Part shown: one piece after another, positions 8,105 to 41,610 of the stretch
Layout of the letters: each line of letters starts with the position of its first letter
How positions within the stretch are numbered: position 1 is the stretch's first letter
IMG/VR virus record: IMGVR_UViG_3300045988_153285
Span: 32,001-96,000 of that record
Direction: 5' to 3' (one strand)
Source: a virus
DNA length: 64,000 bases
The notes under the pieces: generated by a model
What the model was told of the DNA's origin: nothing
Database searches by the model: none
What the model saw: only the letters and a program-made list of their open reading frames with translations
Made by a program: the position numbers and the translations under genes

Positions 8105-8995
8105 ATGAAATTAGAAGATATAACGGAAAACTTTACAATGATACCAAATGAGGTTATTAAATTAGAAAATGAATTAACTACTAAAGAATTATTAATATTA
8201 ACTATTATATTAACTACTAGAGCAGGAAATAAAAATATATGTATATTTAATTTACAATCTATTTATAGTACGTTAGGAATAAAAAGTAATAATACAAAAA
8301 CTAAAAAAGAAGTAAAGGATATATTGCAGTTATTTAAGGATGAAAATATACTACAGTATTTCACCGATATATTTTGCACTGAAGAAATAGATAACATATT
8401 AAACTATGATAAAAACAATTTAATTTATGCACATATCATTGACTTAGATTCTGAAGGATTTACTTACATATTAGATCAAGAAATTAAATACATATTAGAC
8501 CATTCTAAAGAAAACAAACTAGATACAAGTATAATGTTAAAAATATGTTTATATATTCTTAGCTTTATAAATGAAAATGAACAAGATGAATATTATAAAC
8601 TAGCTTTTCCTAAAATGACCACAATAGCTGAAAATGTAGACGTAACAGAAAAAACAGTATTAAAACATGTCAACGCCTTAAAAGAGTTGAAAATATTAAA
8701 TTTTGACTATGCAGGATTTAAGGAAATGAGAGACGGAAAAATAAAAAATGGAAATATGTTTTATTGTAGATATGAAGATAGTAAAATATTACTTGAGCAG
8801 TTAGAAAGAGAAAGAAGTACAAAAGGATTTATAAAACAAAATAAATTACAAAAAGATAAAAGTAATCTAAAGAGAAGAATAACACAAGAAATAAATTACA
8901 TAAATAAAAAGATAGAAAATAATACAGCTGATGAGATAGAAAGAGAAAAGATAAAACTACTAAAAGAAGAGTATAGCAAACTTGAAAATCGCTAG
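8105..8995 (+). CDS. winged-helix replication-initiator / DnaD-like DNA-binding protein (putative)
   Basis: N-terminus ENFTMIPNEVIKLE..LTTKELLILTIIL resembles Firmicute RepA_N / replisome-organizer proteins; repeat-rich DNA directly downstream. Confidence 0.5.
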   Translation: MKLEDITENFTMIPNEVIKLENELTTKELLILTIILTTRAGNKNICIFNLQSIYSTLGIKSNNTKTKKEVKDILQLFKDENILQYFTDIFCTEEIDNILNYDKNNLIYAHIIDLDSEGFTYILDQEIKYILDHSKENKLDTSIMLKICLYILSFINENEQDEYYKLAFPKMTTIAENVDVTEKTVLKHVNALKELKILNFDYAGFKEMRDGKIKNGNMFYCRYEDSKILLEQLERERSTKGFIKQNKLQKDKSNLKRRITQEINYINKKIENNTADEIEREKIKLLKEEYSKLENR

Positions 8996-10499: not shown

Positions 10500-10505
10500 A
10501 TAATT

Positions 10506-10998
10506 AAAATTTAAAAATATTATTTTATATAAATTAATAAAAATATAGGAAGTCCTATAAGGCAACTGGAACACAGAAAAACAGTATAAATAAACTGTGG
10601 TTGGCCACCGACTAAAAAGAAGGCTCGGATATAAGTATTACTTACTATATGCTTATAACCGTCAAACGGGTACATATGACCGTTAAATAAATTATATGGG
10701 TTTGGTTAGCTTAGGTTAGAAATAACGGACTTATAATAAGCTTTAAAGCGTATTCTATGGGCTAAGAGTAGAATGTTAAAGTTATAAGATAACAAAGTAA
10801 GTAATATTACTAAGATACAATAGCGATATACAGTAGTATTTTTGTTTGCCTCGAAAAACAGGGGTAAACTATACCCAAAAATGTGTCCAAGCTCAACCAG
10901 TAGTATATAGCTTCGCTACCTAATTGCAAGTAAAAACTATATTTTATTTATATAAATTAATAAAACAAAGAAGAAGTTTAACGACTTCTTTTTATTTT
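10506..10998 (+). ncRNA. candidate structured non-coding RNA, class unknown
   Basis: About 0.45 kb without an ORF. G+C is visibly higher than in the flanks. A promoter lies upstream and an AAGAAGT/ACTTCTT hairpin + T-run terminator at 10971-10998. Several local hairpins, e.g. GGGTA-aacta-TACCC. Confidence 0.4.
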
Positions 10999-11515: not shown

Positions 11516-13339
11516 ATGTGTAAAATATTATTAAATGAAAAATTAAATGGTGTAGAATTATATTTTGAGGAGAAACCAGCAGGAACAGTATTAACAGATT
11601 TAAAAGCTAATGGTTTTAGATGGAATGGTAAAAAGGTTTGTTGGTATGCTAAACAATCAGAAGAAACTTTAAAGGTTGCTAATACATACAGTGAAGGATC
11701 AAAAGAAGTTGCAACAGCTTCATTAAAGAAAATTAACAAAATAGATTTATTTGAATTAACTACTTATACAGAAGTAGAAAGAGAAAAGAATTATAATACA
11801 AAGGAAATAGCAAAGAAAATAAGAACACACTTAAAAGCTAGATTTAAATTTGTTAAATTTTCAGTTACTTCTAAAGATAGAATAAGAGTAGAAATAAAAT
11901 CAGCACCATTTGAAAAAGATACTATTTATTTAAAGGCTATTCAAGAATACGTTGATAAATTAGTAGAATCATACAATTTTTGTACTTGTTATGATCCATA
12001 TGGTGACTATGGTTCAAGTTATAATTTTTATTTCTTTGGTTGTAGAGTTGATTATGATTATATTCAAGTTGAAGCAACACAAGAAATAATTGAAGCTATG
12101 AAACAGTTTGATATTAAAGTAGCCGAAGCCGAAGAATTAAAAAGAGTTGAAGAAGAAAGACAATATCAAGAATATTTAAAAGAACAAGAACAAGCGAATA
12201 AAGAAGCAGAAAAAAGACAAAAACAAATAAAAGCCGATAAAGAATATATTAATAATAATATTGAAGTTGTTGATCTAGAAGAAGGAAATCAATATTTTGT
12301 TAAAAATGCTTATTTTGCAAATTTAAATAAAAATAACACATTAGAAAGATATCAAGAAGAAGTTTCTAAAGGTGACTACTATTTAAATACTTTAAAAGTA
12401 ACTAGAGAAGTTCACTTCAAAGATTTAAAATCATATAATCTATACATAAATATGTTATTACATGATTTTGATTTTATTGACGGTACTGGTGGAAGTTATA
12501 CAGATGATTTAAGAATTAATTCAATGACAGACTATTATAATATGACTAGCGAAGAACAAAAAACTATTGAATGGCTTTTAAAGGGCGTAGCAGTATATAT
12601 TGATAATGAGTTAATGTTTGTTATAGATGCTCAGGGTTATTGTTATGCTAGATATGTTGGATTAATTGGAGAAAATACAGTTACTACAAAGGAATATACT
12701 TGTAAACAAGTTGTAGCAGTTGAAGAGGTAGAAGAAAGAAAAATTGAAGCTGAAGAAATTCAAGAGGTTTATAATAATGTAATTAATAATACTTTTGATA
12801 ATTGGTATGATACTAGAAAAGCAATAGCAGCAGCTATAAGAAAAAATCCGTTATTGACTTTTGATAATACAGTGGTACAACAAATCAAAGATGAAAAAAT
12901 TAAAATTGATTTATATAAAGTGCTAAAGGAAGTCGATACGATTCAAGATCAGTTTAATGAATCAGGATTAAGCAAGGGCGATAAATTAACCATTGTAAGG
13001 GGTTCAATGATTGGCGGGGCTTCTATATCACATATTATATTAGAAGGTTTTACAATGGAAGAATATGCACAATATAAAGACAATGTAAAAATAACTATGA
13101 ATGTTAAGGGTAAAAAAGGTTTATATTTAACTAATGTGCATGATAAAGATATTGTAATATATAAAGGTTGGATTGATATACCTACTAGCGTATTATATGA
13201 AGATACAAGCAATGGAAACTTTAACGGAATGGCTACAAAATACGGAAGTTATGACGAAAGAGCAATAAGTGATATTATGAGTTATTTACAAGAAAAAAAT
13301 ATATTGCCAATAATAAATACATTCAAGCCAATATTTTAA
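11516..13339 (+). CDS. large hypothetical protein with coiled-coil centre
   Basis: AAGGAG SD, ATG 11516; N-terminal NGVELYFEEKP..LKANGFRWNGKKVCWYA domain recalls mobile-element proteins; EEERQYQEYLKEQEQANKEAEKRQ coiled coil. Confidence 0.7.
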   Translation: MCKILLNEKLNGVELYFEEKPAGTVLTDLKANGFRWNGKKVCWYAKQSEETLKVANTYSEGSKEVATASLKKINKIDLFELTTYTEVEREKNYNTKEIAKKIRTHLKARFKFVKFSVTSKDRIRVEIKSAPFEKDTIYLKAIQEYVDKLVESYNFCTCYDPYGDYGSSYNFYFFGCRVDYDYIQVEATQEIIEAMKQFDIKVAEAEELKRVEEERQYQEYLKEQEQANKEAEKRQKQIKADKEYINNNIEVVDLEEGNQYFVKNAYFANLNKNNTLERYQEEVSKGDYYLNTLKVTREVHFKDLKSYNLYINMLLHDFDFIDGTGGSYTDDLRINSMTDYYNMTSEEQKTIEWLLKGVAVYIDNELMFVIDAQGYCYARYVGLIGENTVTTKEYTCKQVVAVEEVEERKIEAEEIQEVYNNVINNTFDNWYDTRKAIAAAIRKNPLLTFDNTVVQQIKDEKIKIDLYKVLKEVDTIQDQFNESGLSKGDKLTIVRGSMIGGASISHIILEGFTMEEYAQYKDNVKITMNVKGKKGLYLTNVHDKDIVIYKGWIDIPTSVLYEDTSNGNFNGMATKYGSYDERAISDIMSYLQEKNILPIINTFKPIF

Positions 13340-19978: not shown

Positions 19979-21319
19979 ATGGAAAGTTTAGAAAAATTAA
20001 AAGAGAGAATATTAGAATCTGTAGAAGATAATATTAACAATAAAAAATTATTAAAAGAGTTGAGAGAGGAATTTATAAAGAAAAAATTACCTTCAGCCAT
20101 ACCAAACCAATTGTTTAGTGAGTCTATAGATGAAGATCACTTAGATAAAAATGTATTGATTGCTATAACAAAAGTATTTAAGAATGAATTAGACTCTGAA
20201 AAATTTAAACTATCTAATTACTTTAGTGAAGGTGAAATATTTAGCTACAACAATGAGATAGAAGTTAAAGAAAAAATAGATTATGTATTGTTTAAAGGAA
20301 TCAGACAGATAGATGGCAAGAACTTTTTAGGTGTTATTGATGGTAAGCAAGCAGTTGAAATGAGAAAAAATTCACTATATTCCTATAATAAGTTATTTCA
20401 ACGTGCGCCTAAGGTGGTCAGAACATCTTCTGGAAGAACTATAAAGAAAATTGATGCGAATAAAGAAAATATATTAGATATGGAAAAAGAGTTTTCAGAA
20501 GAAAAAATGACACCAACATCTATTCATTTTGCTATATTAGTTAATAATACGGCAGGAATAAGCGAAAACTTTAAATTTAAAAAAATGTATGAAAATATAG
20601 GTGATATGTGGATTAAGCCGAACTTTGATTTTGAATCTGAAACTTATTTACCATTAATGTGTGTTGATGGGTGGCATAGATTAACAGCTATGTGCAATGC
20701 AGTTGAAAAAGCTGAAGCAGAAGGAAAAACAATAAAGGCTGAATTAGGATGTTTTGTTCATATTTTTGATAATGAAGCAGCTATTAGACACTTTATAGTT
20801 AGTACATTTAAACGCTGTACGACTAATCTAGATTATTTAAATGCAATTACTCCTAATGATGACAATATATTTATAGATGAATTTATAAAAGAATGCAAAT
20901 GGTTAAATGGACATACAGCATTAACTAAGCAAGAAATGAAATTAGAAAATAATTATACTGAAAAAAGAATATTAATAGATTCATTTAAGAAAACTAATAT
21001 AGAGATGAATGATGATCTAAAGAACACAATAAGTCGAGAAAAAGTGGCAAAAGTAATCGATGAAACATTAGATTATGTATTAAAAGAATTATATGATAAC
21101 AATTTAGAAAAAATGATTAATACTATTTATTTGAATAGAAATATATTTAAAATGTATATAAAGTTTGCAGCAGAAGTTAGAGATAAAAAATATGGAATGG
21201 ATATTTATAACCTGATTCAGTATATAGAAAATAATTGCGAAAAAATTACAAACACATTTAATGAAAAGTATATAGCAGATAGTAGTATAGATTTAATTCT
21301 GAGCGAGGTGATTAAATAA
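19979..21319 (+). CDS. ParB/Srx-fold protein with DGQHR-like motif (DndB-like)
   Basis: LMCVDGWHRLTAM resembles the DGQHR signature of DndB/DGQHR-domain proteins; AGGAG SD. Confidence 0.5.
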   Translation: MESLEKLKERILESVEDNINNKKLLKELREEFIKKKLPSAIPNQLFSESIDEDHLDKNVLIAITKVFKNELDSEKFKLSNYFSEGEIFSYNNEIEVKEKIDYVLFKGIRQIDGKNFLGVIDGKQAVEMRKNSLYSYNKLFQRAPKVVRTSSGRTIKKIDANKENILDMEKEFSEEKMTPTSIHFAILVNNTAGISENFKFKKMYENIGDMWIKPNFDFESETYLPLMCVDGWHRLTAMCNAVEKAEAEGKTIKAELGCFVHIFDNEAAIRHFIVSTFKRCTTNLDYLNAITPNDDNIFIDEFIKECKWLNGHTALTKQEMKLENNYTEKRILIDSFKKTNIEMNDDLKNTISREKVAKVIDETLDYVLKELYDNNLEKMINTIYLNRNIFKMYIKFAAEVRDKKYGMDIYNLIQYIENNCEKITNTFNEKYIADSSIDLILSEVIK

Positions 21320-22461
21320 TGAAGACTTTTGAGGAATTAATAAAGAGCGAAAGAAATAAATTGGAAAATAAAAATTTAAAATTTGATGAGTACGAGAACA
21401 ATAAGATAAACTGGTTAAACGATGATGAGAATAACGGATATATAGCAGAAAAAACAAAGATAACTTATTATAGATTGTTAGATGTGCATGTGCATAGTTC
21501 GGAAATAGCTAATAACAAAGATTTAAGAAAATTTACAAGTGTAGAAATAGAAAACCTAGTTAAAGGAGCAATAACTAATAGTAGTACAACTAAACGTGCT
21601 ATATTTGCAGCTATAAATAATTATATGATATATAACGTTGAAAGAGGATTTATAAGCTACAATCCATGTGACTCAATACCAACAACTGATTTATTTGAAG
21701 TAAATAATAAAGCATTAAAAGAACAATACATGCCGTTAGATGAGTTCTATGCATATGTAGATGAATTATCTGCTGATAATGTTGAAAAAATGGTATATGT
21801 ACTAATTAGATACGGTGTACCAGTAAGTGATGTACCTAATGTCAAATGGGAAGATTTGAATGAAGAAGAAATGGTATTAACAACTATTGTTAAGAAAAAA
21901 GCAGTGTCATTACCTATAGATGAAGATTTTATAAGAAAAGCAAGGTTGTGTAGGGCATGTTCAGAGTATGAAGATGGTGGCTATATGATAAAAACAGTAG
22001 ATGGAAGACTTTCTTCTGTAAGTAGAATATATGGAATAATTGATAGGGTTAGTAAAGCTAGCGAAGTTGCAAGACCAGATATGGGAATGTTATTTAAAAA
22101 TAGAAGATATGATCTCGCATTAGAAATTTATGAAGATGAAGGACAAATAGAATCAAACGATCTAAAAGAAATATTAGATATATTAGGTTTATCAAGTGGA
22201 AATTCTAGTTTAACTACATTTAGAAAAGAATTAGAAAATATCTTTGGTTTAGAAGTTAAAACAAAAAACAAAAGAGCTATTGATGTTATAGATATTAATA
22301 CAGGTGAAATAATAAAGACTTATGAATCTATTAGAAATGTGGTAAAAGATAGCAAAGAAACTTTCGGATTCTATATAGATAAGAGTGTTGTTGGGAAAAC
22401 ATGCAAAGGTGAAAGAGAAGGCATGAGAGGATTAACATTTAGATATTCAGAGCAGGGGTAA
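21319..22461 (+). CDS. tyrosine-recombinase-like DNA-binding protein, probably catalytically inactive, with C-terminal NUMOD-like tail
   Basis: Start overlaps upstream stop. SAM-like N-domain (..TTKRAIFAAINNYMIYNVERGFISYNP). VLIRYGVPVSD keeps the Arg. LFKNRRY replaces H-x-x-R and LGLSSGNSSLTTF has Phe where Tyr is expected. Confidence 0.45.
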   Translation: MKTFEELIKSERNKLENKNLKFDEYENNKINWLNDDENNGYIAEKTKITYYRLLDVHVHSSEIANNKDLRKFTSVEIENLVKGAITNSSTTKRAIFAAINNYMIYNVERGFISYNPCDSIPTTDLFEVNNKALKEQYMPLDEFYAYVDELSADNVEKMVYVLIRYGVPVSDVPNVKWEDLNEEEMVLTTIVKKKAVSLPIDEDFIRKARLCRACSEYEDGGYMIKTVDGRLSSVSRIYGIIDRVSKASEVARPDMGMLFKNRRYDLALEIYEDEGQIESNDLKEILDILGLSSGNSSLTTFRKELENIFGLEVKTKNKRAIDVIDINTGEIIKTYESIRNVVKDSKETFGFYIDKSVVGKTCKGEREGMRGLTFRYSEQG

Positions 22462-31948: not shown

Positions 31949-32101
31949 TAAAAAATAACAAAATTAAAATATTAATAAAACTAACATTTTATCAGGAAAA
32001 ATATAAATTAAAATAATACAATAAATATATTAAATTTACGAATATTATTGAATAAAATGGAAAGTATAATAAATGATGTTTAGTTTAAAGGAGATGTATT
32101 T

Positions 32102-33878: not shown

Positions 33879-34391
33879 ATGAAATTAAATTTAATACCAG
33901 ATTTAATACTCATAAATGAAAGAGGAGAGAGGTTTAAAATTATAACTCAGCAAGCTGTAATTAGAATAGGTGATAGCGTTTTAATTAAAAATGACTTTGA
34001 CATTAGAGATGAATTAGAAAAGTTTTTTGAAGAATCAAAAGAATCAATTCTTGAATTAGAATACCATCCGTTAGATCAAAATCTAGAGCATACAGAAATA
34101 ACTACTAAGCGAATATATATTAATACATATGAAGTTAGAGAGTATTATAACACTGAAAAGGATAAAAATGATATGATATATATGTTTAGCGTTTCTGGTG
34201 AGAATACAAAGGAATTAATTGAAGAATATAGACACAGACAGATAGTTGAAAGTTTAAAAGAACAAAAATCAAAAGAAATAAAGTTTATTGATGAGGCAAC
34301 TCTGGAAAGATTGCTTAACGAAATGAGTGTAGGAACGCAAGAATTGATAGATTCAAATACAGAATTAATAAATAAATATTTAAGTATATAG
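33879..34391 (+). CDS. hypothetical protein immediately upstream of the cas operon
   Basis: AAGGAGAG SD; 170 aa. Confidence 0.7.
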   Translation: MKLNLIPDLILINERGERFKIITQQAVIRIGDSVLIKNDFDIRDELEKFFEESKESILELEYHPLDQNLEHTEITTKRIYINTYEVREYYNTEKDKNDMIYMFSVSGENTKELIEEYRHRQIVESLKEQKSKEIKFIDEATLERLLNEMSVGTQELIDSNTELINKYLSI

Positions 34392-34396
34392 ATTTT

Positions 34397-34414
34397 AATA
34401 TAAATTAACAAAAC
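34397..34414 (+). repeat. dispersed motif copy heading the cas operon
   Basis: AATATAAATTAACAAAAC followed by an AGCCC/GGGCT hairpin and the cas5 SD. Confidence 0.7.
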
Positions 34415-34465
34415 ATAGAGGATAAAGCCCGGAGTTGGGCTATTAAATAGATGTGAGGTGAAGAA

Positions 34466-35098
34466 ATGAGGTTTCATAAATTAATTATAACTGGCAATGA
34501 AGCACACTTTAAAATACCTATGAGAAGCAAATTTCAAAATACTTATAAAATACCTCCTATATCAACAGTTGTAGGAATGCTGCAAAATATATACGGTAAA
34601 GATATAAATGACTTTGAATTAGGATATTTCATAGAGTATGAGGGTGTTGGAAAAGAAATAATAAATATATATAAAGAAGTAAATAGTAGGCAGAAGACAT
34701 TGACTTGTTCAGATAGATTTACGAAAGATATTATATATGTTGAAAATTTATATAAAGTTAGGCTAGTTATCTACCACAATATAGAAAAAGAAATTGAATT
34801 CAAAGAACCATTGACATTAGGGAAAGCTAATTATCTTGCAAATGTAAAATTTGAGGAGATAGATCTAACTAATAAATTAGGTTTAGGATATAATCAATAT
34901 ACCCCTAAAGATATAGGATATGGTATGTTGACAAGAATTAATACAGTAACAAAATACAATGAATTAAAAGGTTATTATGAATATGAAACAGAACTTGTAA
35001 GAGAAAACTTGGAGGAGTTTGAGTTAGATAATAACTATGATGAAACAGAAGATATGAATATTTATGTGTGGAAATGGAGTGATGGAGTTGTTAGTTAA
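34466..35098 (+). CDS. cas5: CRISPR-associated protein Cas5
   Basis: MRFHKLIITGNEAHFKIPMRSKFQNTYKIPPISTVVGMLQNIYG is the classic Cas5 N-terminal pattern; LTLGKANYLANV. Confidence 0.8.
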   Translation: MRFHKLIITGNEAHFKIPMRSKFQNTYKIPPISTVVGMLQNIYGKDINDFELGYFIEYEGVGKEIINIYKEVNSRQKTLTCSDRFTKDIIYVENLYKVRLVIYHNIEKEIEFKEPLTLGKANYLANVKFEEIDLTNKLGLGYNQYTPKDIGYGMLTRINTVTKYNELKGYYEYETELVRENLEEFELDNNYDETEDMNIYVWKWSDGVVS

Positions 35099-35849
35099 AA
35101 AAATAATAATTATGAAAGGTGAGGGCAAGTTAGATTATAATTATCATTATGAATTAATGAAGAGATTATACGAAGCATTAACATTAACGGATGATAAGAA
35201 GGCATTGAATCTACACGATAAAGGAATAAGTGTAGATAAAAAGAGGTTTAAATTATTTAATTATACATTATGTTTCGATAAGGAAGTAAAATATTTAAAT
35301 GATGGTATAAGTTTTAATAAGGATAATAGTATTAGATTAATTCTATCAGGTGATACAGATATATTAAATCCAATAATTAAAGGACTTATAACTAAACAAG
35401 TAATAACCTTGAATGGTGTTGAATTAAAAATAACAAATATGGAAGACGATAAAAAATTTAACTTCAAAAATATAATGCTATATAAAGTAAGATCACCAAT
35501 AGTTGAAACAATATTTAATGGCGAAAGAATAGAGTATTTAAATCCTTGTCAAGAGAATTGGTATTCAGCTTTGGCAAATAACTTAAAGAGGAAATATAAA
35601 GCGGTGTACAATGAAGAATATGAAGGTGAGTTATTCTTTGACATAGAAGATATATTAAATGTTAAAAAGAAAATGATAAATAAAATCAAGAAAGGATTTT
35701 TAATAGGATATACAGATTTTGAAATATTTGTACAAGCTACTCCTAAGATGCAAAAAATAGCTTATAATTTAGGATTAGGGCAAAATAGTAGCTTAGGAAT
35801 GGGAGCTATATCTTATATAAAAGGGTGGAACAATGAACAGGACATATGA
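35082..35849 (+). CDS. cas6: CRISPR-associated endoribonuclease Cas6
   Basis: Trimmed to MELLVKK..; LHDKG..FKLFNYTL; C-terminal Gly-rich loop GLGQNSSLGMGAI typical of Cas6. Confidence 0.75.
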   Translation: MELLVKKIIIMKGEGKLDYNYHYELMKRLYEALTLTDDKKALNLHDKGISVDKKRFKLFNYTLCFDKEVKYLNDGISFNKDNSIRLILSGDTDILNPIIKGLITKQVITLNGVELKITNMEDDKKFNFKNIMLYKVRSPIVETIFNGERIEYLNPCQENWYSALANNLKRKYKAVYNEEYEGELFFDIEDILNVKKKMINKIKKGFLIGYTDFEIFVQATPKMQKIAYNLGLGQNSSLGMGAISYIKGWNNEQDI

Positions 35850-36960
35850 TGTATTCGTAGATAATGGGTTATTTGTGTTAGCATACTATCTAGATAAGGA
35901 AATAGAGAATATAACAGAACAAGATATATTTGATAGTATAGATATGATGTGTGAAAAGATAAATGAATTTACTGGTTGTGAAAAGTATTCAAATTTAAAA
36001 TCTATGATGTTTGCAAATTCAGCTTTGACACAACCTAATTCATCAAAGAAAGTAAATGACTTTTTAAATGACTTTTATAATTCTAAAGGCGAAGAAACTT
36101 GTTGTACTTGTGGAAATAAAACAGCAAATATAATTAATGGAGATTTAAATAGAAGTTATCTACCAAATAAAGTAGCACATACATTTTATAATTTCTCTAA
36201 CAATCTACAGGGTGTAAATGTATGTGGAATATGTTCTATACTTACAATGTTTAGTATATTAAATGCTAGAGTATATGGATTGGCTTACTTATATAATAGC
36301 GATAATGATGACTTTATGTATGACTATACATATGAACGTCAAGAAGAGAATGAAAGAGATATATTATCAGAAGCAAAGAAAAGTAAAGAAAAGATCAATA
36401 GTTTAAATACAGTTGAGCAGTTGATGAATAATACTAAGCTATATGATGGATATATACAAATATATAAATTCAACAATTCAGGACAAAACCAAGACATAGA
36501 AATACAAGATATTAATTCTGAAAGTGTTAAGCTATTATCCAATATAGTTAAATCAGGTATGTTAAATGAATTTAAACAATTTGGCTTAATGTACAATCTA
36601 ATCATAGGCAATTTAAGAAACGTATATCTTAGTAAAATAACAAAAGATGATGAAATGATATGCAGCAAAGAATTATTTGAGATGTTAAATAGAGAGGTAA
36701 ATATTTTGAGTAGTGAATTAAAGGAAGTTATAATAAAAATAGCCGATAGGTTAAAGAATGAAGATATAGTTAAGATAAGAAAAACATTAAAATTAATAAA
36801 AACATTTAAAGACTTTGAAGGGTTTATTGTTAACCTAGCTGAAGATTATAAAGATAAATATGATGACAATTTGTATACAGTTGACGAGTATATGCTATTA
36901 GATAATAAATTAAAATATAACCAAATTAAAAATTTAATGATAGTAAGCTTGATGCAATAA
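35833..36960 (+). CDS. cas8: Cas8b-like large subunit (short, 375 aa)
   Basis: Position between cas6 and cas7; CCTCGNK..CGICS Zn-finger as in the TM1802/Cas8b family; helical C-terminus. Confidence 0.55.
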   Translation: MNRTYDVFVDNGLFVLAYYLDKEIENITEQDIFDSIDMMCEKINEFTGCEKYSNLKSMMFANSALTQPNSSKKVNDFLNDFYNSKGEETCCTCGNKTANIINGDLNRSYLPNKVAHTFYNFSNNLQGVNVCGICSILTMFSILNARVYGLAYLYNSDNDDFMYDYTYERQEENERDILSEAKKSKEKINSLNTVEQLMNNTKLYDGYIQIYKFNNSGQNQDIEIQDINSESVKLLSNIVKSGMLNEFKQFGLMYNLIIGNLRNVYLSKITKDDEMICSKELFEMLNREVNILSSELKEVIIKIADRLKNEDIVKIRKTLKLIKTFKDFEGFIVNLAEDYKDKYDDNLYTVDEYMLLDNKLKYNQIKNLMIVSLMQ

Positions 36961-36974
36961 TAAATTAATAAAAT
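36956..36974 (+). repeat. dispersed motif copy (variant) inside the cas operon
   Basis: AATAATAAATTAATAAAAT overlapping the cas8 stop, upstream of the cas7 SD. Confidence 0.55.
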
Positions 36975-37000
36975 TAGAGAGTAAAAGGAGAATGATTAAA

Positions 37001-38029
37001 ATGAAAAGAATGTTAAATATGAATTATGTTATTGAAGTTTTAGATGGAAGATTAAACGGAAGTGCAGTGGAAGTCGAAAGCAATAAGGATGGATTTAATA
37101 ATACAACTTTTACAAAGAAAATCGGTGGTAGAGCTAAGGTATCGGCAGTTTGTCAAAAGGCGAACATGAAGAATTATATGTGTGAAGTATTAAAAGAAAC
37201 TATTGGAGAAAAGACTAAAGAAGGTAAGCAAGTTTTAAGCACGCCTAACCCATATGCTAATTTATTTGATGATGTATTTGGATTTATGTTGGCGACAAAG
37301 ATTGAGTTGACTGAGGGAGAATATAAGGAATTACCAGAAGATGTGCAAAAAACATTTGAAAAGAAAGGTAAAAAATATACTAATAATGCAACTAAAAAGA
37401 GAACTTCTAACTTACAAATGAGTTCATTAATCAATGTGAGTAATAGAAGGGTTGAAACGGAATTTAATGTTTGTGCTACAAGTGGAGACAATATGCCTTA
37501 TAAAATTGAAACATATTCAGGAATTATGTCAGGAATAGCAAACTTAAATATAGGTAAGATAGGTGAATTTACTATATCAGATATTGCGTCAGAATATAGA
37601 GATTATACTGTTAAAGAAGCAGAAGTTCTAGGGGTTGAAAACCTATCAAGAGAAGATAAATTATCTAGAATAGAAAAGACATTAAATGCTTTAGAGTATA
37701 TGTCAATCAAAGGAAATCAGACAAACCACTTAACAGATACAAAACCTAAATTTATTATAATGGCTGATTATGGTTGGGGTAATAATGTATTCCAAGGAGT
37801 GATAAATAAAGATGGGTTAGATATAGAAATGCTAAAAGAATCAATAGATCAAAATGAAGAATATAGATTAAGTAATATTTATATAGGAGTTAATAAATTC
37901 TTTGATAAAAATAACAATTTAGATTTAGATACAATAAGAGAAGAATTAAGGGAATATGATTTCATAAAAGTTGATAATGTTCATAATACATTTAAGAATT
38001 ACATAAAAGAGTTAAGAGAGAATATTTAA
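37001..38029 (+). CDS. cas7: Cas7-like backbone subunit
   Basis: Size and position; GGRAKVSAVCQKANMKNYM resembles the Cas7/DevR R..(V/I)S....K..R segment; trimmed to ATG 37001 for SD spacing. Confidence 0.6.
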   Translation: MKRMLNMNYVIEVLDGRLNGSAVEVESNKDGFNNTTFTKKIGGRAKVSAVCQKANMKNYMCEVLKETIGEKTKEGKQVLSTPNPYANLFDDVFGFMLATKIELTEGEYKELPEDVQKTFEKKGKKYTNNATKKRTSNLQMSSLINVSNRRVETEFNVCATSGDNMPYKIETYSGIMSGIANLNIGKIGEFTISDIASEYRDYTVKEAEVLGVENLSREDKLSRIEKTLNALEYMSIKGNQTNHLTDTKPKFIIMADYGWGNNVFQGVINKDGLDIEMLKESIDQNEEYRLSNIYIGVNKFFDKNNNLDLDTIREELREYDFIKVDNVHNTFKNYIKELRENI

Positions 38030-38127
38030 TTGTCGATGTAGTGGGATTTTAACACTAAGTTAATTAGACAGAAAATAAAAGACGGTCAGAGGTTGCAAAC
38101 TTAGTGTTAGAGCCAATATAGATACGG
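38030..38127 (+). other. CRISPR leader-side region with 11-bp inverted repeat
   Basis: AACACTAAGTT 38051-38061 / AACTTAGTGTT 38098-38108; comparatively G+C-rich; no obvious sigma-A promoter. Confidence 0.5.
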
Positions 38128-38751
38128 GTATTAATTATAATATGGTTATTTATAAACAACAACCTTTTAAAGTCATTATGAGTATTCCAATATGTATTAA
38201 TTATAATATGGTTATTTATAAATGAATGTGGACTCCTATATAAGATTATCTTCGATACGTATTAATTATAATATGGTTATTTATAAATATATATAAATTT
38301 TATGTGTTTCTTCAGTTTCTTCTGTATTAATTATAATATGGTTATTTATAAACTATAAATAGGTGTTTTTAACTCTAAATAGTGTCAAAGTATTAATTAT
38401 AATATGGTTATTTATAAATAGATCTACTGCCATTTTAATATTCATACTATTCACTTGTATTAATTATAATATGGTTATTTATAAACAGTGGTAATTCTAT
38501 TGTCAATATATCACCATAACTAGTTTTAATATTAATAATATATATTTATAAAGGTAGTAACAGTTTTAGGAACATTGACAGCTGGTGTGTTTAAATAGTA
38601 ATATAATTATTTATAAATGGTGTAGTGGTATACGACATCGAAAATAAAACTGCGTTTAAATATTAATATAGTTATTTATAAACTAAAAGGTCTTCCTAGA
38701 TACATTACATCTAAAGAAGTGTATTAATTATAATATAAATTATTTTATAAA
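38128..38751 (+). CRISPR. CRISPR array, 10 repeats / 9 spacers (36-38 nt)
   Basis: Six identical 29-nt repeats GTATTAATTATAATATGGTTATTTATAAA at 38128, 38194, 38259, 38324, 38390, 38457. Variants follow at 38523, 38589, 38654, 38721. Confidence 0.95.
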
Positions 38752-38771
38752 ATTGAAAGGAGTAAAATAAA

Positions 38772-40718
38772 ATGTTAAAAGAGTATATAGCAAAAACAGA
38801 TAAAACATCATTAGAAGATCATAATAAAGAATTGACAAATATACTGAAACAAATAATTGATATATATGATATAGAAAATATAAAAGAATCATTGAATAGA
38901 TGTATTGAATATCATGACATAGGAAAATGTTCTGATTCAATGCAGAATAGATTAAAGGGAAAAGACGTTAATTTTATAAGACATGAATGGGTCGGTGCAA
39001 GTGTAGAAGATCTGACAGATGGTGAAAGATTGGCTATATTAACGCATCATAAAGATATTAGTAAGTCATTAGAATTAATTGATAATGATAAGTATATATC
39101 TGAATTAGAAGAAATTAAAAATAAATTGAATATAAAATTAAATAATATTGATGATTTTGTTAAGAAAGTAAACAAACCGAGGTGTAGTATTACAAAAGAT
39201 TTAGATAATATATTATTAAAGGGTTATTTAAATTATTGTGACCATTTATGCAGTGCAGGTAATATAACTATAGATAAAGGATTTAATTCTTTAGATAGGT
39301 TTAAGTTTAATAATTATAATTCTATTCAGAATAAGGCTATGAATACACGTGAAGACGTTTTAATTCAAGCTATGACAGGATTAGGTAAAACAGCGGCATC
39401 TTTATTGTGGAGTAATAATGTTCAGAATGAGGACAAGTCTAAAAGAATATATTACATATTGCCTTTTACAGCTAGTATAAATTCGTTATATAAAGATTTC
39501 TTAAATAGAAATATATCTACCACAATGCTACATAACAAAGCTGAATATTTTATGGACAAGCTGCATGATGAATATAATTATAAATTAATGAAGTATTCCA
39601 CTAAGCAACTAAACATTTGCACAATATTTCAATTAGCTAAGGCAATTTTTAGTTGTAAGAACTTTGAAATGATAATAGCTCAAATGAAGAACAGTATAAT
39701 AATGGTAGATGAAATACATTGCTTTGATTTAAAAACGTTGAGTTATATTTTAGAATTATTAAGATTTTTAAAATATAAATTAGGATGTAGAATCTGCATA
39801 ATGAGTGCCAGTATTCCAACTGTATTACAGAAATTAATAAAGGATAGACTAGATATAAACAAGGTTATATATGCTGATAAGCGTGATCTAAAAATAAGAC
39901 ATAGAATACATAGAGTAAATAAAACAATTTTGGATGACATAGAAAAAATAGAAAATGATCTAAGAGAAGGAAAGCAAGTTATAGTGTGTGTTAATAATGT
40001 GACTACTTCTCAGATTATTTATAAAATATTTAAAGATAAATATAAGTGCAAGTTGATACATGGTAGATTTAATACTAGAGATAGAGAAATTGCTGAACAA
40101 GGGCTAAAGGTAAATCAATTACTTGTAGGAACTCAAGCGATAGAAGTATCTTTAGATATTAGTTATGATACAATGTATACTGAAATAGCGCCATATGATG
40201 CTTTACTGCAGCGTTTCGGAAGAGTTAATAGACGTGGAGAAAAGGGAATTAGAGATATTTACATATATAATAACTATAATAAATGTATTTATGATGATGA
40301 ACTAATTAATAATACAGATTTAGTTATAGATGAAATAATACATAATGATAATAGAATAATACTTGAAGAAAAAGTTGAGCATTATTTGGATAAAGTTTAT
40401 ACATATATAGATATAATTAGCTACAATAAATATTCAAATTCTTTAGAAAAAGTAATAAATAATCTTAGAGTTGGAAACTATAATAAAAATAGCATAAAAG
40501 AGATGATTCAAGGTGATACAGTATCGGTAATTCCTGAGTGTCTATTGGAAGAATATCAAAAGCTGATAAATGATAGAGAATATTTAAAAGCTCAATCACT
40601 AAAGTTAAATATTAATTCTAATAGAATGAAATACAATAGTGACATGTTTTATATATGCGATGATTTGGTTGTATCGAAATATAAATATACATATGATTTA
40701 GGTATGGAGTTTGAATGA
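38772..40718 (+). CDS. cas3: Cas3 nuclease-helicase (HD domain + SF2 helicase)
   Basis: HD motifs (EDHNKE, YHDIGK, THHKD); helicase AMTGLGKT (I), VDEIH (II), QRFGRVNRRG (VI). Confidence 0.85.
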   Translation: MLKEYIAKTDKTSLEDHNKELTNILKQIIDIYDIENIKESLNRCIEYHDIGKCSDSMQNRLKGKDVNFIRHEWVGASVEDLTDGERLAILTHHKDISKSLELIDNDKYISELEEIKNKLNIKLNNIDDFVKKVNKPRCSITKDLDNILLKGYLNYCDHLCSAGNITIDKGFNSLDRFKFNNYNSIQNKAMNTREDVLIQAMTGLGKTAASLLWSNNVQNEDKSKRIYYILPFTASINSLYKDFLNRNISTTMLHNKAEYFMDKLHDEYNYKLMKYSTKQLNICTIFQLAKAIFSCKNFEMIIAQMKNSIIMVDEIHCFDLKTLSYILELLRFLKYKLGCRICIMSASIPTVLQKLIKDRLDINKVIYADKRDLKIRHRIHRVNKTILDDIEKIENDLREGKQVIVCVNNVTTSQIIYKIFKDKYKCKLIHGRFNTRDREIAEQGLKVNQLLVGTQAIEVSLDISYDTMYTEIAPYDALLQRFGRVNRRGEKGIRDIYIYNNYNKCIYDDELINNTDLVIDEIIHNDNRIILEEKVEHYLDKVYTYIDIISYNKYSNSLEKVINNLRVGNYNKNSIKEMIQGDTVSVIPECLLEEYQKLINDREYLKAQSLKLNINSNRMKYNSDMFYICDDLVVSKYKYTYDLGMEFE

Positions 40719-40737
40719 ACTTAAATTAAAAATTTAA

Positions 40738-40787
40738 AATATAAATTAATAAAATAGATTGACAAATTTAAATAAGTAATATATAAT
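40738..40787 (+). promoter_or_regulatory. dispersed motif + consensus sigma-A promoter just after cas3
   Basis: AATATAAATTAATAAAAT, TTGACA 40759-40764, 17-nt spacer, TATAAT 40782-40787. Confidence 0.75.
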
Positions 40788-41039
40788 AAATAATGTAAGA
40801 TTAAGGCATAAACCTTTAGCATAAGTATTGTCATAAATAATATGAAGGGCGGTGATTATCAAATTTAGGATAAATACATAAAACAAATCAAGATCAAACC
40901 AATTTAAATAAAAAATAAACCTATTCACACATTATTAACGGTTGACCTTAATTGGTCAATCTGAGGATATTGAAAAGTATCTTGAGATTAACTAATTAAG
41001 AAATGACTTATAAATTAAAATTACAAAGGAGTTGGGAAA

Positions 41040-41213
41040 ATGAATGCATATGAATTAATGAAAGAATTCTATGATCTAGATAATGAGATTTTAGAATTGG
41101 TAAACAAGAAAAATAAGAAAGATGTAGCCTGGATGGACAAGGCGATCGATTCAAAATTAAGCAGACAATTAGAAATTAAGCACACTTTAGAAAGAATAAA
41201 TGTAGTGTTATAG
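41040..41213 (+). CDS. 57-aa hypothetical protein (below ORF-track cutoff)
   Basis: AAGGAG SD; MNAYELMKEFYDLDNEILEL.. Confidence 0.5.
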   Translation: MNAYELMKEFYDLDNEILELVNKKNKKDVAWMDKAIDSKLSRQLEIKHTLERINVVL

Positions 41214-41223
41214 GAGGGAAATT

Positions 41224-41610
41224 ATGAATCATAAATACATAGAAGAAATTATGGATATAGAAGAATCGCCTTATGGTTGGTCAAAAAATACGGGTAGAGA
41301 TGAAATGTGGGAAGATCAAAGAAGAATATATGGGTTTGATGAAAGAGAAACTTGGAGTTTAGATGCAACATTTATCTATTGGCTATATGAACGATTGAGA
41401 ATGTTTAATGAAGTAAATTGTATAAATACTGATTTTCATACATTCGATATAAACGGTAAGAAACTTACTCAACAAGAATGCATAGATACTATGATAGCTA
41501 AATGCAAAGATTATATAGCATATCGAGGAATAGATGATAATTATACTTACAACTTAAAAAATGAAATTTTAGATATATGGAAAGAATGCATTCATGCTAT
41601 GTGGTGGTAG
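41224..41610 (+). CDS. hypothetical protein
   Basis: AGGAGGG SD; 128 aa. Confidence 0.7.
   Translation: MNHKYIEEIMDIEESPYGWSKNTGRDEMWEDQRRIYGFDERETWSLDATFIYWLYERLRMFNEVNCINTDFHTFDINGKKLTQQECIDTMIAKCKDYIAYRGIDDNYTYNLKNEILDIWKECIHAMWW

Follow-up and report, generated by a model that had tools for sequence, protein, structure and literature searches.

How could an array built from several kinds of repeat come to lie inside the operon whose products it serves, with its last repeat running almost directly into the ribosome-binding site of a nuclease gene? The question is raised by a 64,000-nucleotide (nt) stretch of viral DNA (positions 32,001 to 96,000 of the IMG/VR record IMGVR_UViG_3300045988_153285, hereafter the window), where a CRISPR array separates cas7 from cas3 in a type I-B module. 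Comparison with related loci leads us to regard it as probable that this is a phage-borne I-B interference module directed against other phages, that its mixture of repeats is a mosaic produced by recombination, and that the cas genes, the leader, the array, and cas3 constitute one transcription unit.

The array comprises ten direct repeats (R1-R10) at positions 38128-38751, with a period of 65-67 nt, separated by nine unique spacers (s1-s9) of 35-37 nt each; all ten lie where a previous reading of the window from its letters alone (hereafter the sequence-only reading) had placed them. A degenerate repeat pattern matches the window eight times, against 0.00 matches expected (100 shuffles). The regular spacing of direct repeats, the unique spacers of similar length, a conserved leader on one side with a degenerate terminal repeat on the other, and spacers that match foreign DNA beside a consistent protospacer-adjacent motif (PAM; CCA in three cases out of three) are the marks of a CRISPR array. 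A contig from an independent metagenome sample (L140) carries exactly the same array, which is therefore not an assembly artefact. R1-R6, starting at 38128, 38194, 38259, 38324, 38390, and 38457, have in common a 29-nt core, GTATTAATTATAATATGGTTATTTATAAA. The base on the 3' side of this core mismatches the target in all three protospacer matches described below, so that the repeat unit is 30 nt long. This last base is variable (C, T, T, C, T, C, G, T, C from R1 to R9), and R1-R6, which the sequence-only reading had called identical, are therefore so over the 29-nt core and not at the 30th base. The same reading had given R7-R9 a common 3' half and a different 5' half, as we also find: R7 (start 38523, 30 nt), R8 (start 38589, GTTTAAATAGTAATATAATTATTTATAAA), and R9 (start 38654, GTTTAAATATTAATATAGTTATTTATAAA) begin with GTTT(T/A)AAT and keep TTATTTATAAA, which is retained in most repeats of all the arrays compared. 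Over all aligned arrays, the 90% consensus of the repeat is GT.T.AAT...AATA......TTTATAAA, with the 3' TTTATAAA conserved at 90% or more and the 5' two thirds variable; hardly any change is seen in the last ~11 nt, made up of TTATTTATAAA and one variable base. No hairpin was found in the repeats, every variant being predicted to be unstructured, and no Rfam family matches either the repeats or the leader.

Two of the window spacers, s2 and s3, reveal what the array is directed against (Table 1). Both match, beside a 5'-CCA, a siphovirus-like viral contig (L148), unrelated to the window phage and encoding a Dit-like tail protein, an HNH endonuclease, and a helicase. The s2 protospacer (L148 4180-4214, - strand) lies within a 58-amino acid (aa) zinc-ribbon-like open reading frame (ORF) and the s3 protospacer at 10920-10954 (+ strand); spacer 5 of the related array L004 has a diverged match (30/36) on the same contig, ~175 nt from the s3 protospacer and likewise preceded by CCA. 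CCA represents 0.87% of the L148 trinucleotides, and finding it in three cases out of three by chance has a probability of ~7e-7. Its position on the 5' side of the protospacers implies that the array is read on the + strand; the reverse orientation was considered and rejected, CCA being 5' in 3/3 protospacers and the 3' flanks having no consensus. A 5' PAM of the CCN type is the one expected of clostridial I-B systems, and CCW has been shown experimentally to be the PAM of the Clostridioides difficile I-B system (PMC4556805). Judged by these spacer matches, the target of the CRISPR system is another phage. No exact match to s7, s8, or s9 was found in IMG/VR, 45 spacers compared with phage records gave chance-level matches only, and 62 spacers compared with plasmids gave only one marginal match (E=0.3), between spacer 3 of the relative L003 and Clostridium botulinum plasmids.

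The mixture of repeats can be followed in related arrays, which we gathered from relatives found through Cas7, in metagenome assemblies; a scan of Joint Genome Institute (JGI) metagenomes gave one useful locus, L132. The GTTTAAAT type seen in R8 and R9 is the standard repeat of the sister lineages L004, L149, L150, and L008, so that the apparent second family of the window is their normal repeat. The repeat is GTTTAAATATTAATATAGATATTTATAAA in L004 and L005 (Cas7 81% identical to that of the window) and begins with GTTTCAAT in L149 (73%) and with GTTTTAAT in L008 (70%); in L150 (77%) the first repeat begins with GCTTAAAT and the later ones with GTTTAAAT or GTTTCAAT, and in L007 (76%) the repeat begins with GTATCAAT. 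The second repeat of L004 is identical to R9 of the window. The R7 type also recurs, beside different spacers, in L003 (R15), L132 (R6, R9, and R10), and L139 (R5 and R12). L003 and L132, with Cas7 ~98% and leader 95-96% identical to those of the window, have zero spacers in common with it and hold the same three repeat types, interleaved.

Among contigs with an identical Cas7, the eight that reach the first spacer all share s1 and differ internally only. L138 corresponds to the window array without s8 and R9, L139 and L141 to the window array with a block of five additional units between s1 and s2, in which four other repeat variants occur, and L142 to L139 without s2 and s3. These contigs, which keep s1 and differ by internal blocks, therefore point to recombination and deletion between repeats and not to one join. 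A two-spacer cassette of the L139 block (s23, a repeat of the AATAATATATA type, s24, and the repeat GTGTTAAT) is also found near the trailer end of L003, with one and three spacer mismatches, so that L139 and its 98%-identical relative hold it at different array positions. In addition, there is one case in L139 of an earlier repeat variant coming back farther along, and there are four such cases in L003 and two in L132, a pattern that leader-end addition plus deletion could not yield. The sequence-only reading had discarded simple trailer decay, which the recurrence of the same variants beside different spacers bears out, and had proposed that two arrays were joined or that one was overwritten from the leader side; several repeat versions have indeed been mixed, but that choice is too simple, since the contigs indicate recombination and deletion between repeats with no single join. 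Recombination between repeats, by deletions within arrays and cassette exchange between related arrays, is the most economical explanation of the mosaic; it would operate on repeat versions that diverged wherever divergence was tolerated, and the window array would most economically be seen as a cut-down form of a mosaic of greater complexity, like that of L139.

Two further observations concern the variation of these arrays. Spacer s7 has 2/36 differences between L139 (4886-4921) and the window (38553-38588), with identical Cas7 and other shared spacers, which hints at allelic exchange of single cassettes. The L150 array (2187-2726) contains eight repeats that are all mutually different in their 5' two thirds and keep TTATTTATAAA, an extreme heterogeneity that is as expected if nothing homogenises the repeats in a system without adaptation. 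Other searches yielded no additional arrays: exact and degenerate repeat patterns had no match in IMG/VR, a single-protein search for Cas7 loci in viral and genome collections gave no confirmed relatives, and all 120 stretches returned from GTDB genomes by a 19-nt repeat pattern, too unspecific for this purpose, were lone chance matches with no array.

The terminal repeat R10 has itself a composite structure, a 5' GTATTAATTATAATAT followed by a 3' AAATTATTTTATAAA, which it shares with the terminal repeats of L138, L139, and L140. In L003 and L132 the orthologous terminal repeat is GTTTAAATTATAATAAATTATTTCATAAA, and in L004 it is GTTTTAATATTAATATAGTTATTTCATAAA; all three loci keep the GTTT 5' end. 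An extra base in TTATTT(C/T)ATAAA is common to the terminal repeats of the window, L003, L132, L004, and L138-L140, so that the terminal repeat predates the split from the 81% lineage. On this comparison, R10 is best read as a crossover hybrid between the 5' half of a family-1 repeat and the 3' half of the old terminal repeat; the family-1 5' half and degenerate 3' half that the sequence-only reading recognised are there, but they represent such a hybrid rather than a return to the first family.

Between R10 and the cas3 start codon (ATG at 38772) there are only 20 nt, and these contain the Shine-Dalgarno sequence AAAGGAG, just as the sequence-only reading had noticed. AAAGGAG is invariant in the window, L003, L132, and L004, and the segment from TTATTT to the ATG is identical at 33/35 positions between the window and L004, compared with 72% for the leader and 67% for third codon positions of cas7, a conservation above the neutral level (binomial P 1.5e-4 to 1.2e-3). 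In the more distant L008, the terminal repeat is truncated straight into the AAGGAGG of cas3, and in L135, a Terrisporobacter metagenome-assembled genome (Cas7 54%), an array of at least ~46 repeats stands between cas7 and cas3, its degenerate last repeat being followed by AAAGGAG. The placement of the array and the fusion of its terminal repeat to the cas3 ribosome-binding site are, in the sequences compared, conserved from 98% to ~54% Cas7 identity. The layout with the array inside the operon is not universal, as L133 and the plasmid p2BKT015925 differ. L133 (6428-13600, C. difficile GCA_045983915.1, Cas7 56%) is an integrative element with an integrase, Fic, a cI-like repressor, and DnaB; it has a cas5-6-8-7 block with cas3 10 nt past cas7, and degenerate repeats plus a 9-copy array (GTTTAAATTACACTAAGTTAG...) after cas3, an alternative layout of the family.

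Several features of the region bear on how cas3 is transcribed. No terminator-like site was detected in 34000-41500, where promoter-like sites are at background level (57 versus 64.7 expected), the promoter scan being uninformative at 26% G+C. R10 contains a TATAAT, whose -35 element would fall in the last spacer, different in the window, L003, L132, and L004. With no terminator and no room for a conserved -35 element, co-transcription of the array and cas3 is the simplest reading and would be the most economical one. An RNA structure masking the cas3 Shine-Dalgarno sequence until cleavage was also considered and rejected, as none was found (z-score 0.24). At the other end of the gene, L008 has a lone nearly perfect repeat (10503-10531) 17 nt past the cas3 stop, so that repeats border its cas3 at either end; in the window and in L004, the search for a repeat remnant beyond cas3 gave nothing significant.

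The leader, between cas7b and R1, contains a 15-bp stem (38047-38061 paired with 38098-38112) with a 36-nt loop. Across eight lineages the stem is 99.2% paired, three pairs show compensatory change, and values as high as these occur in 0-1 of 500 shuffles. The G-U pairs of the stem can form on the + strand only. The covariation and these strand-specific pairs suggest that the leader is transcribed, and the stem, which has no U-tract and is therefore not a typical terminator, may be an RNA 3'-end stabiliser or a leader recognition element. More speculatively, it could stabilise the 3' end of the upstream cas mRNA once Cas6 has cut R1.

These elements can be combined into a mechanism. The cas genes, leader, array, and cas3 would be transcribed as a single unit, and Cas6b would cleave the repeats, whose conserved 3' part would hold both its cut site and the 8-nt 5' handle of the CRISPR RNA (crRNA), so that all repeat versions would stay usable. 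Cleavage would free the crRNAs, leave the upstream cas mRNA ending just past the conserved leader hairpin, and release a cas3 mRNA with a short 5' untranslated region starting in the terminal repeat. New spacers would be obtained either from a Cas1-Cas2-Cas4 machinery of the host acting in trans or by cassette exchange between the arrays of co-resident phages.

Could the repeat mixture have arisen without recombination? Were R7-R10 simply the oldest units, drifted by point mutation at the trailer end, the families would be accidental and the distal units inert. The variant repeats of the window are indeed leader-distal, s7-s9 have no target found, and L150, with its eight different repeats, indicates that repeats drift in this adaptation-less family. 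The comparative data already contradict this scenario, which we judge very unlikely: in L003, L132, and L139 the same variants lie beside different spacers in the array interior, with family-1 repeats on their flanks, R9 exactly matches a repeat of the L004 lineage, and it is only in their 5' two thirds that the repeats differ, TTATTTATAAA being kept in R7-R9 as if under selection. A polarised replacement, in which a GTTTAAAT-type array gained a family-1 leader-proximal repeat once and copied it six times by leader-end acquisition (host Cas1-Cas2 acting in trans), with no recombination in the window array, would accommodate the six identical 29-nt cores, which imply recent duplication, the absence of any re-appearing earlier variant when the window array is taken alone, and the first repeat GTTT(A/C/T)AAT of the L004, L149, L150, and L008 lineages, plausibly ancestral. 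It is nonetheless unlikely, given that s1 is common to all eight identical-Cas7 contigs reaching it, with no leader-end gain at that time scale, and that L139, the same phage, has variants between s1 and s2 and then family 1 again. Serial copying also predicts something other than the alternating last bases of R1-R6, and family 1 differs from R9 at five positions at once.

Regarding the transcription of cas3, the last spacer and the terminal repeat might contain a separate promoter for this gene, in which case the tight spacing would reflect genome compaction and Cas6 would not shape the cas3 mRNA. A TATAAT does occur ~37 nt upstream of the ATG in R10 and in the L003 and L132 terminal repeats, AT-rich sequence yields many promoter-like sites, and no structure sequesters the Shine-Dalgarno sequence for cleavage to release. 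This explanation seems to us rather unlikely because the -35 element, 17 nt upstream of TATAAT, would have to lie in that divergent last spacer, no TG extension precedes TATAAT, the truncated terminal repeat of L008 leaves even less room, and there is no terminator between the array and cas3. Some points do weigh against a single recombining transcription unit. Co-transcription and Cas6 cleavage at R10 are read from layout and conservation only; TATAAT is present in every family-1 repeat as well as in R10, and internal starts without a -35 element are possible; the 1-nt insertion of R10 falls in the presumed cleavage and handle region, where it may abolish cutting; and part of the conserved junction is the Shine-Dalgarno sequence with the start context, under constraint wherever the promoter may be, while terminal repeats are usually the most stable part of any array. 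Moreover, targets have been identified for only two of the nine window spacers and for none of those after R7-R9, and the related arrays come from metagenome assemblies, although their key structures recur in several independent samples. A bolder proposal, possible if doubtful, is that the pre-crRNA, with cas3 as its 3' part and in effect its oversized last 'spacer', would be the sole form in which cas3 is expressed, with the Cas6b cut in the terminal repeat as the 5' end of its mRNA and, in L008, the repeat after cas3 as its 3' end, the arrays being renewed by cassette swaps.

The module that surrounds the array has the gene order cas5b-cas6b-cas8b-cas7b-[array]-cas3b, with all genes on the + strand and a G+C content of ~26% around the array (Table 1). 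It includes the Cas8b signature protein together with Cas7b, Cas5b, Cas6b, an endoribonuclease expected to cut the repeats, and a Cas3 with fused HD (TIGR01596, 44.3 bits, cut-off 43.45) and helicase domains. Cas7, Cas6, and both Cas3 domains score above the NCBIfam cut-offs; Cas5, though short of its own, is the best I-B match. The cas8b product has no Pfam or NCBIfam match and is short, and support for the Cas8b signature is therefore only moderate; an identical protein was named Cst1 by JGI. In relatives, cas6b is called from the equivalent of 35082 and Cas7 is 342 aa long. No cas1, cas2, or cas4 occurs among the Pfam families listed (25 of the 48 matching) for 74 window ORFs, nor is there any adaptation gene in the precomputed Pfam lists for L004, L008, L133, and L135. 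Canonical I-B loci have the layout cas6-cas8b-cas7-cas5-cas3-cas4-cas1-cas2 followed by the array, instead of the cas5-cas6-cas8-cas7-array-cas3 found here. By its predicted proteins and PAM, the module is a type I-B system without adaptation module and with a non-canonical gene order.

Table 1. Repeats, spacers with targets, and genes of the CRISPR module (positions in the 64,000-nt window)
Feature	Position	Strand	Description
cas5b	34466..35098	+	PADLOC Cas5b I-B/TNEAP, E 2.5e-18; NCBIfam TIGR01895 64.6 bits, cut-off 96.7 not reached
cas6b	35064..35849	+	TIGR01877 cas_cas6 68.3 bits (cut-off 58.65); PADLOC Cas6b, E 4.9e-39
cas8b	35833..36960	+	Cst1-like large subunit, short (375 aa); PADLOC Cas8b, E 2.7e-11, model positions 99-485 of 496
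cas7b	37001..38029	+	Cst2/DevR; TIGR02585 73.0 bits (cut-off 72.75); PADLOC Cas7b
Array leader	38030..38127	+	Between cas7b and R1
R1-R6 with spacers s1-s5	38128..38486	+	Family 1, 30 nt each including the variable last base
Spacer s2	38224..38258	+	35/35 match to IMGVR_UViG_3300045988_175147 (L148), 5'-CCA PAM
Spacer s3	38289..38323	+	33/35 match to IMGVR_UViG_3300045988_175147 (L148), 5'-CCA PAM
R7	38523..38553	+	AATAATATATA variant with 1-nt insertion; sequence GTTTTAATATTAATAATATATATTTATAAA
R8 and R9 with spacer s8	38589..38683	+	GTTTAAAT type
R10, terminal repeat	38721-38751	+	Sequence GTATTAATTATAATATAAATTATTTTATAAA; family-1 5' half, degenerate 3' half
cas3 Shine-Dalgarno sequence	38756..38762	+	AAAGGAG, seen directly in the sequence
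cas3b	38772..40718	+	Fused HD nuclease and helicase, 648 aa; TIGR01587 cas3_core 212.5 bits (cut-off 102.45); PADLOC Cas3b, E 8.6e-137

The rest of the window encodes SPbeta-type phage replication and recombination functions, with a DnaB-like helicase, a RecJ-like exonuclease, a DNA polymerase, YopX, an integrase, and several methylases; one helicase is labelled exonuclease V/Dda-like by PHROGs. Copies of window proteins that are identical or at least 90% identical occur on 134-140 kb contigs in many metagenomes, and the source of the window is best explained as a clostridial phage of ~134-140 kb that has SPbeta and phage c-st among its relatives. A near-identity search of 25 kb of the window against phage and plasmid collections gave no match. 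Along its whole length (1-64000) the window also carries two C5 and two N6/N4 DNA methyltransferases, a D12-class adenine methyltransferase, a PemK/MazF toxin, a KilAC antirepressor, and a tyrosine integrase (21319-22461), so that the CRISPR module sits amid a heavy load of anti-restriction and conflict genes. Finally, a perfect sigma-70 consensus (TTGACA, 17 nt, TATAAT; 40759-40787), the sole 12/12 promoter match in 34000-41500, is located 41 nt past the cas3 stop codon and probably drives the next transcription unit.

How does this module compare with other systems? Phage-borne CRISPR systems are aimed at competing mobile elements and often have no adaptation genes, as in the window. They reportedly include the type I-F system of Vibrio phage ICP1, compact Cas1/2-less systems in huge phages, and virus-borne mini-arrays, which differ from the window in subtype and host; to our knowledge, in none of them does the array lie between the Cascade genes and cas3. 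Degenerate repeats inside a cas operon, beside the start of a cas gene, are said to occur in crRNA-like autoregulators and in CreTA, between cas6 and cas8 of the Haloarcula I-B system. Elements of the CreTA type have a pseudo-spacer that is complementary, in part, to a promoter of their own genome, whereas the window has a full array with true external targets. A regulatory self-targeting spacer was looked for in the 64-kb window and rejected: the best self matches cover 23-24 of 35-37 nt, all without a CCW PAM, so that no PAM-flanked, partly complementary self match of the CreTA kind was found there. Among the relatives, spacer 5 of L008 has a 24-nt exact match at 11545-11568, downstream on the same contig. 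Two other L008 spacers, 12 (8305-8340) and 14 (8435-8471), contain an identical 15-nt stretch, CTACAGCAGAGTCTA, and may be directed at one site or at paralogous ones.

The nearest annotated relatives are the loci of phage c-st, whose Cas7 is 46% identical to that of the window (DNA ~65%), and of plasmid p2BKT015925. Both have the same order cas5-cas6-cas8-cas7-array as the window, followed by cas3 in p2BKT015925, a repeat related to the window repeat (GTATTAAT...GTTATAAA), and no cas1, cas2, or cas4. The window thus presents the characters of this group, namely a homologous cas5-6-8-7 block with an array directly after cas7, on a mobile element and without adaptation genes. At such a distance (Cas7 46%), it represents a sister lineage of these loci and not the same element. 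Unlike the window, p2BKT015925 has a 154-aa ORF and ~740 nt between the array and cas3, and a second array after cas3; adjoining the two arrays of the plasmid system, a third one (L001, 17166-17528) has an unrelated, typical clostridial I-B repeat, GTTGAACATTAACATGAGATGTATTTAAAT. The window lineage, unlike the c-st group, is much less studied and known from metagenomes only. Passages of Le Gratiet et al. 2021 (PMC8473940) describe partial I-B loci on elements of Clostridium novyi sensu lato (the botulinum neurotoxin phage c-st, p2BKT015925, and pCLG2/pCN2), carried by SPbeta-like phages and plasmids without an adaptation module, with spacers unshared between the elements and phage-against-phage targeting suggested. 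A chromosomal I-B system of C. difficile (Boudry et al. 2015, PMC4556805) resembles that of the window in its subtype, its 5'-CCW PAM, its repeats of ~29-30 nt, and its spacers of ~36-37 nt, and C. difficile prophage arrays target competing phages; these arrays have no cas genes and use those of the host, whereas the window phage carries a whole interference set, with a different gene order, the array between cas7 and cas3, and no adaptation module.

Phage-borne clostridial I-B systems without cas1, cas2, and cas4, and phage-against-phage targeting, are thus already known from the passages in question (PMC8473940), which contain no mention of repeat mosaicism, of an array inside the operon, or of a terminal repeat fused to the cas3 ribosome-binding site. 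A limited literature search found nothing relevant on an array between cas7 and cas3, cas3 co-transcription, or mosaic repeat variants. What appears to be new is the conserved position of the array within the operon, the joining of its terminal repeat to the ribosome-binding site of cas3, and the recombinational repeat mosaic.

The CCA PAM and a perfectly matched target contig make interference assays feasible for this system. If Cas6 cuts at the terminal repeat, the locus would be a natural case in which crRNA maturation also processes a cas mRNA, and, if cas3 were expressed only as part of the pre-crRNA, the supply of the Cas3 nuclease would be tied to crRNA processing. The population data bear on how the CRISPR arrays of mobile elements gain new spacers, since they exhibit array change without Cas1-Cas2, at short range as internal deletions with a fixed first spacer and at longer range as shared cassettes and mixed repeats. 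Were the same proposal true of array renewal, recombination from repeat to repeat between co-resident phages would be a route to immunity that requires no adaptation machinery.

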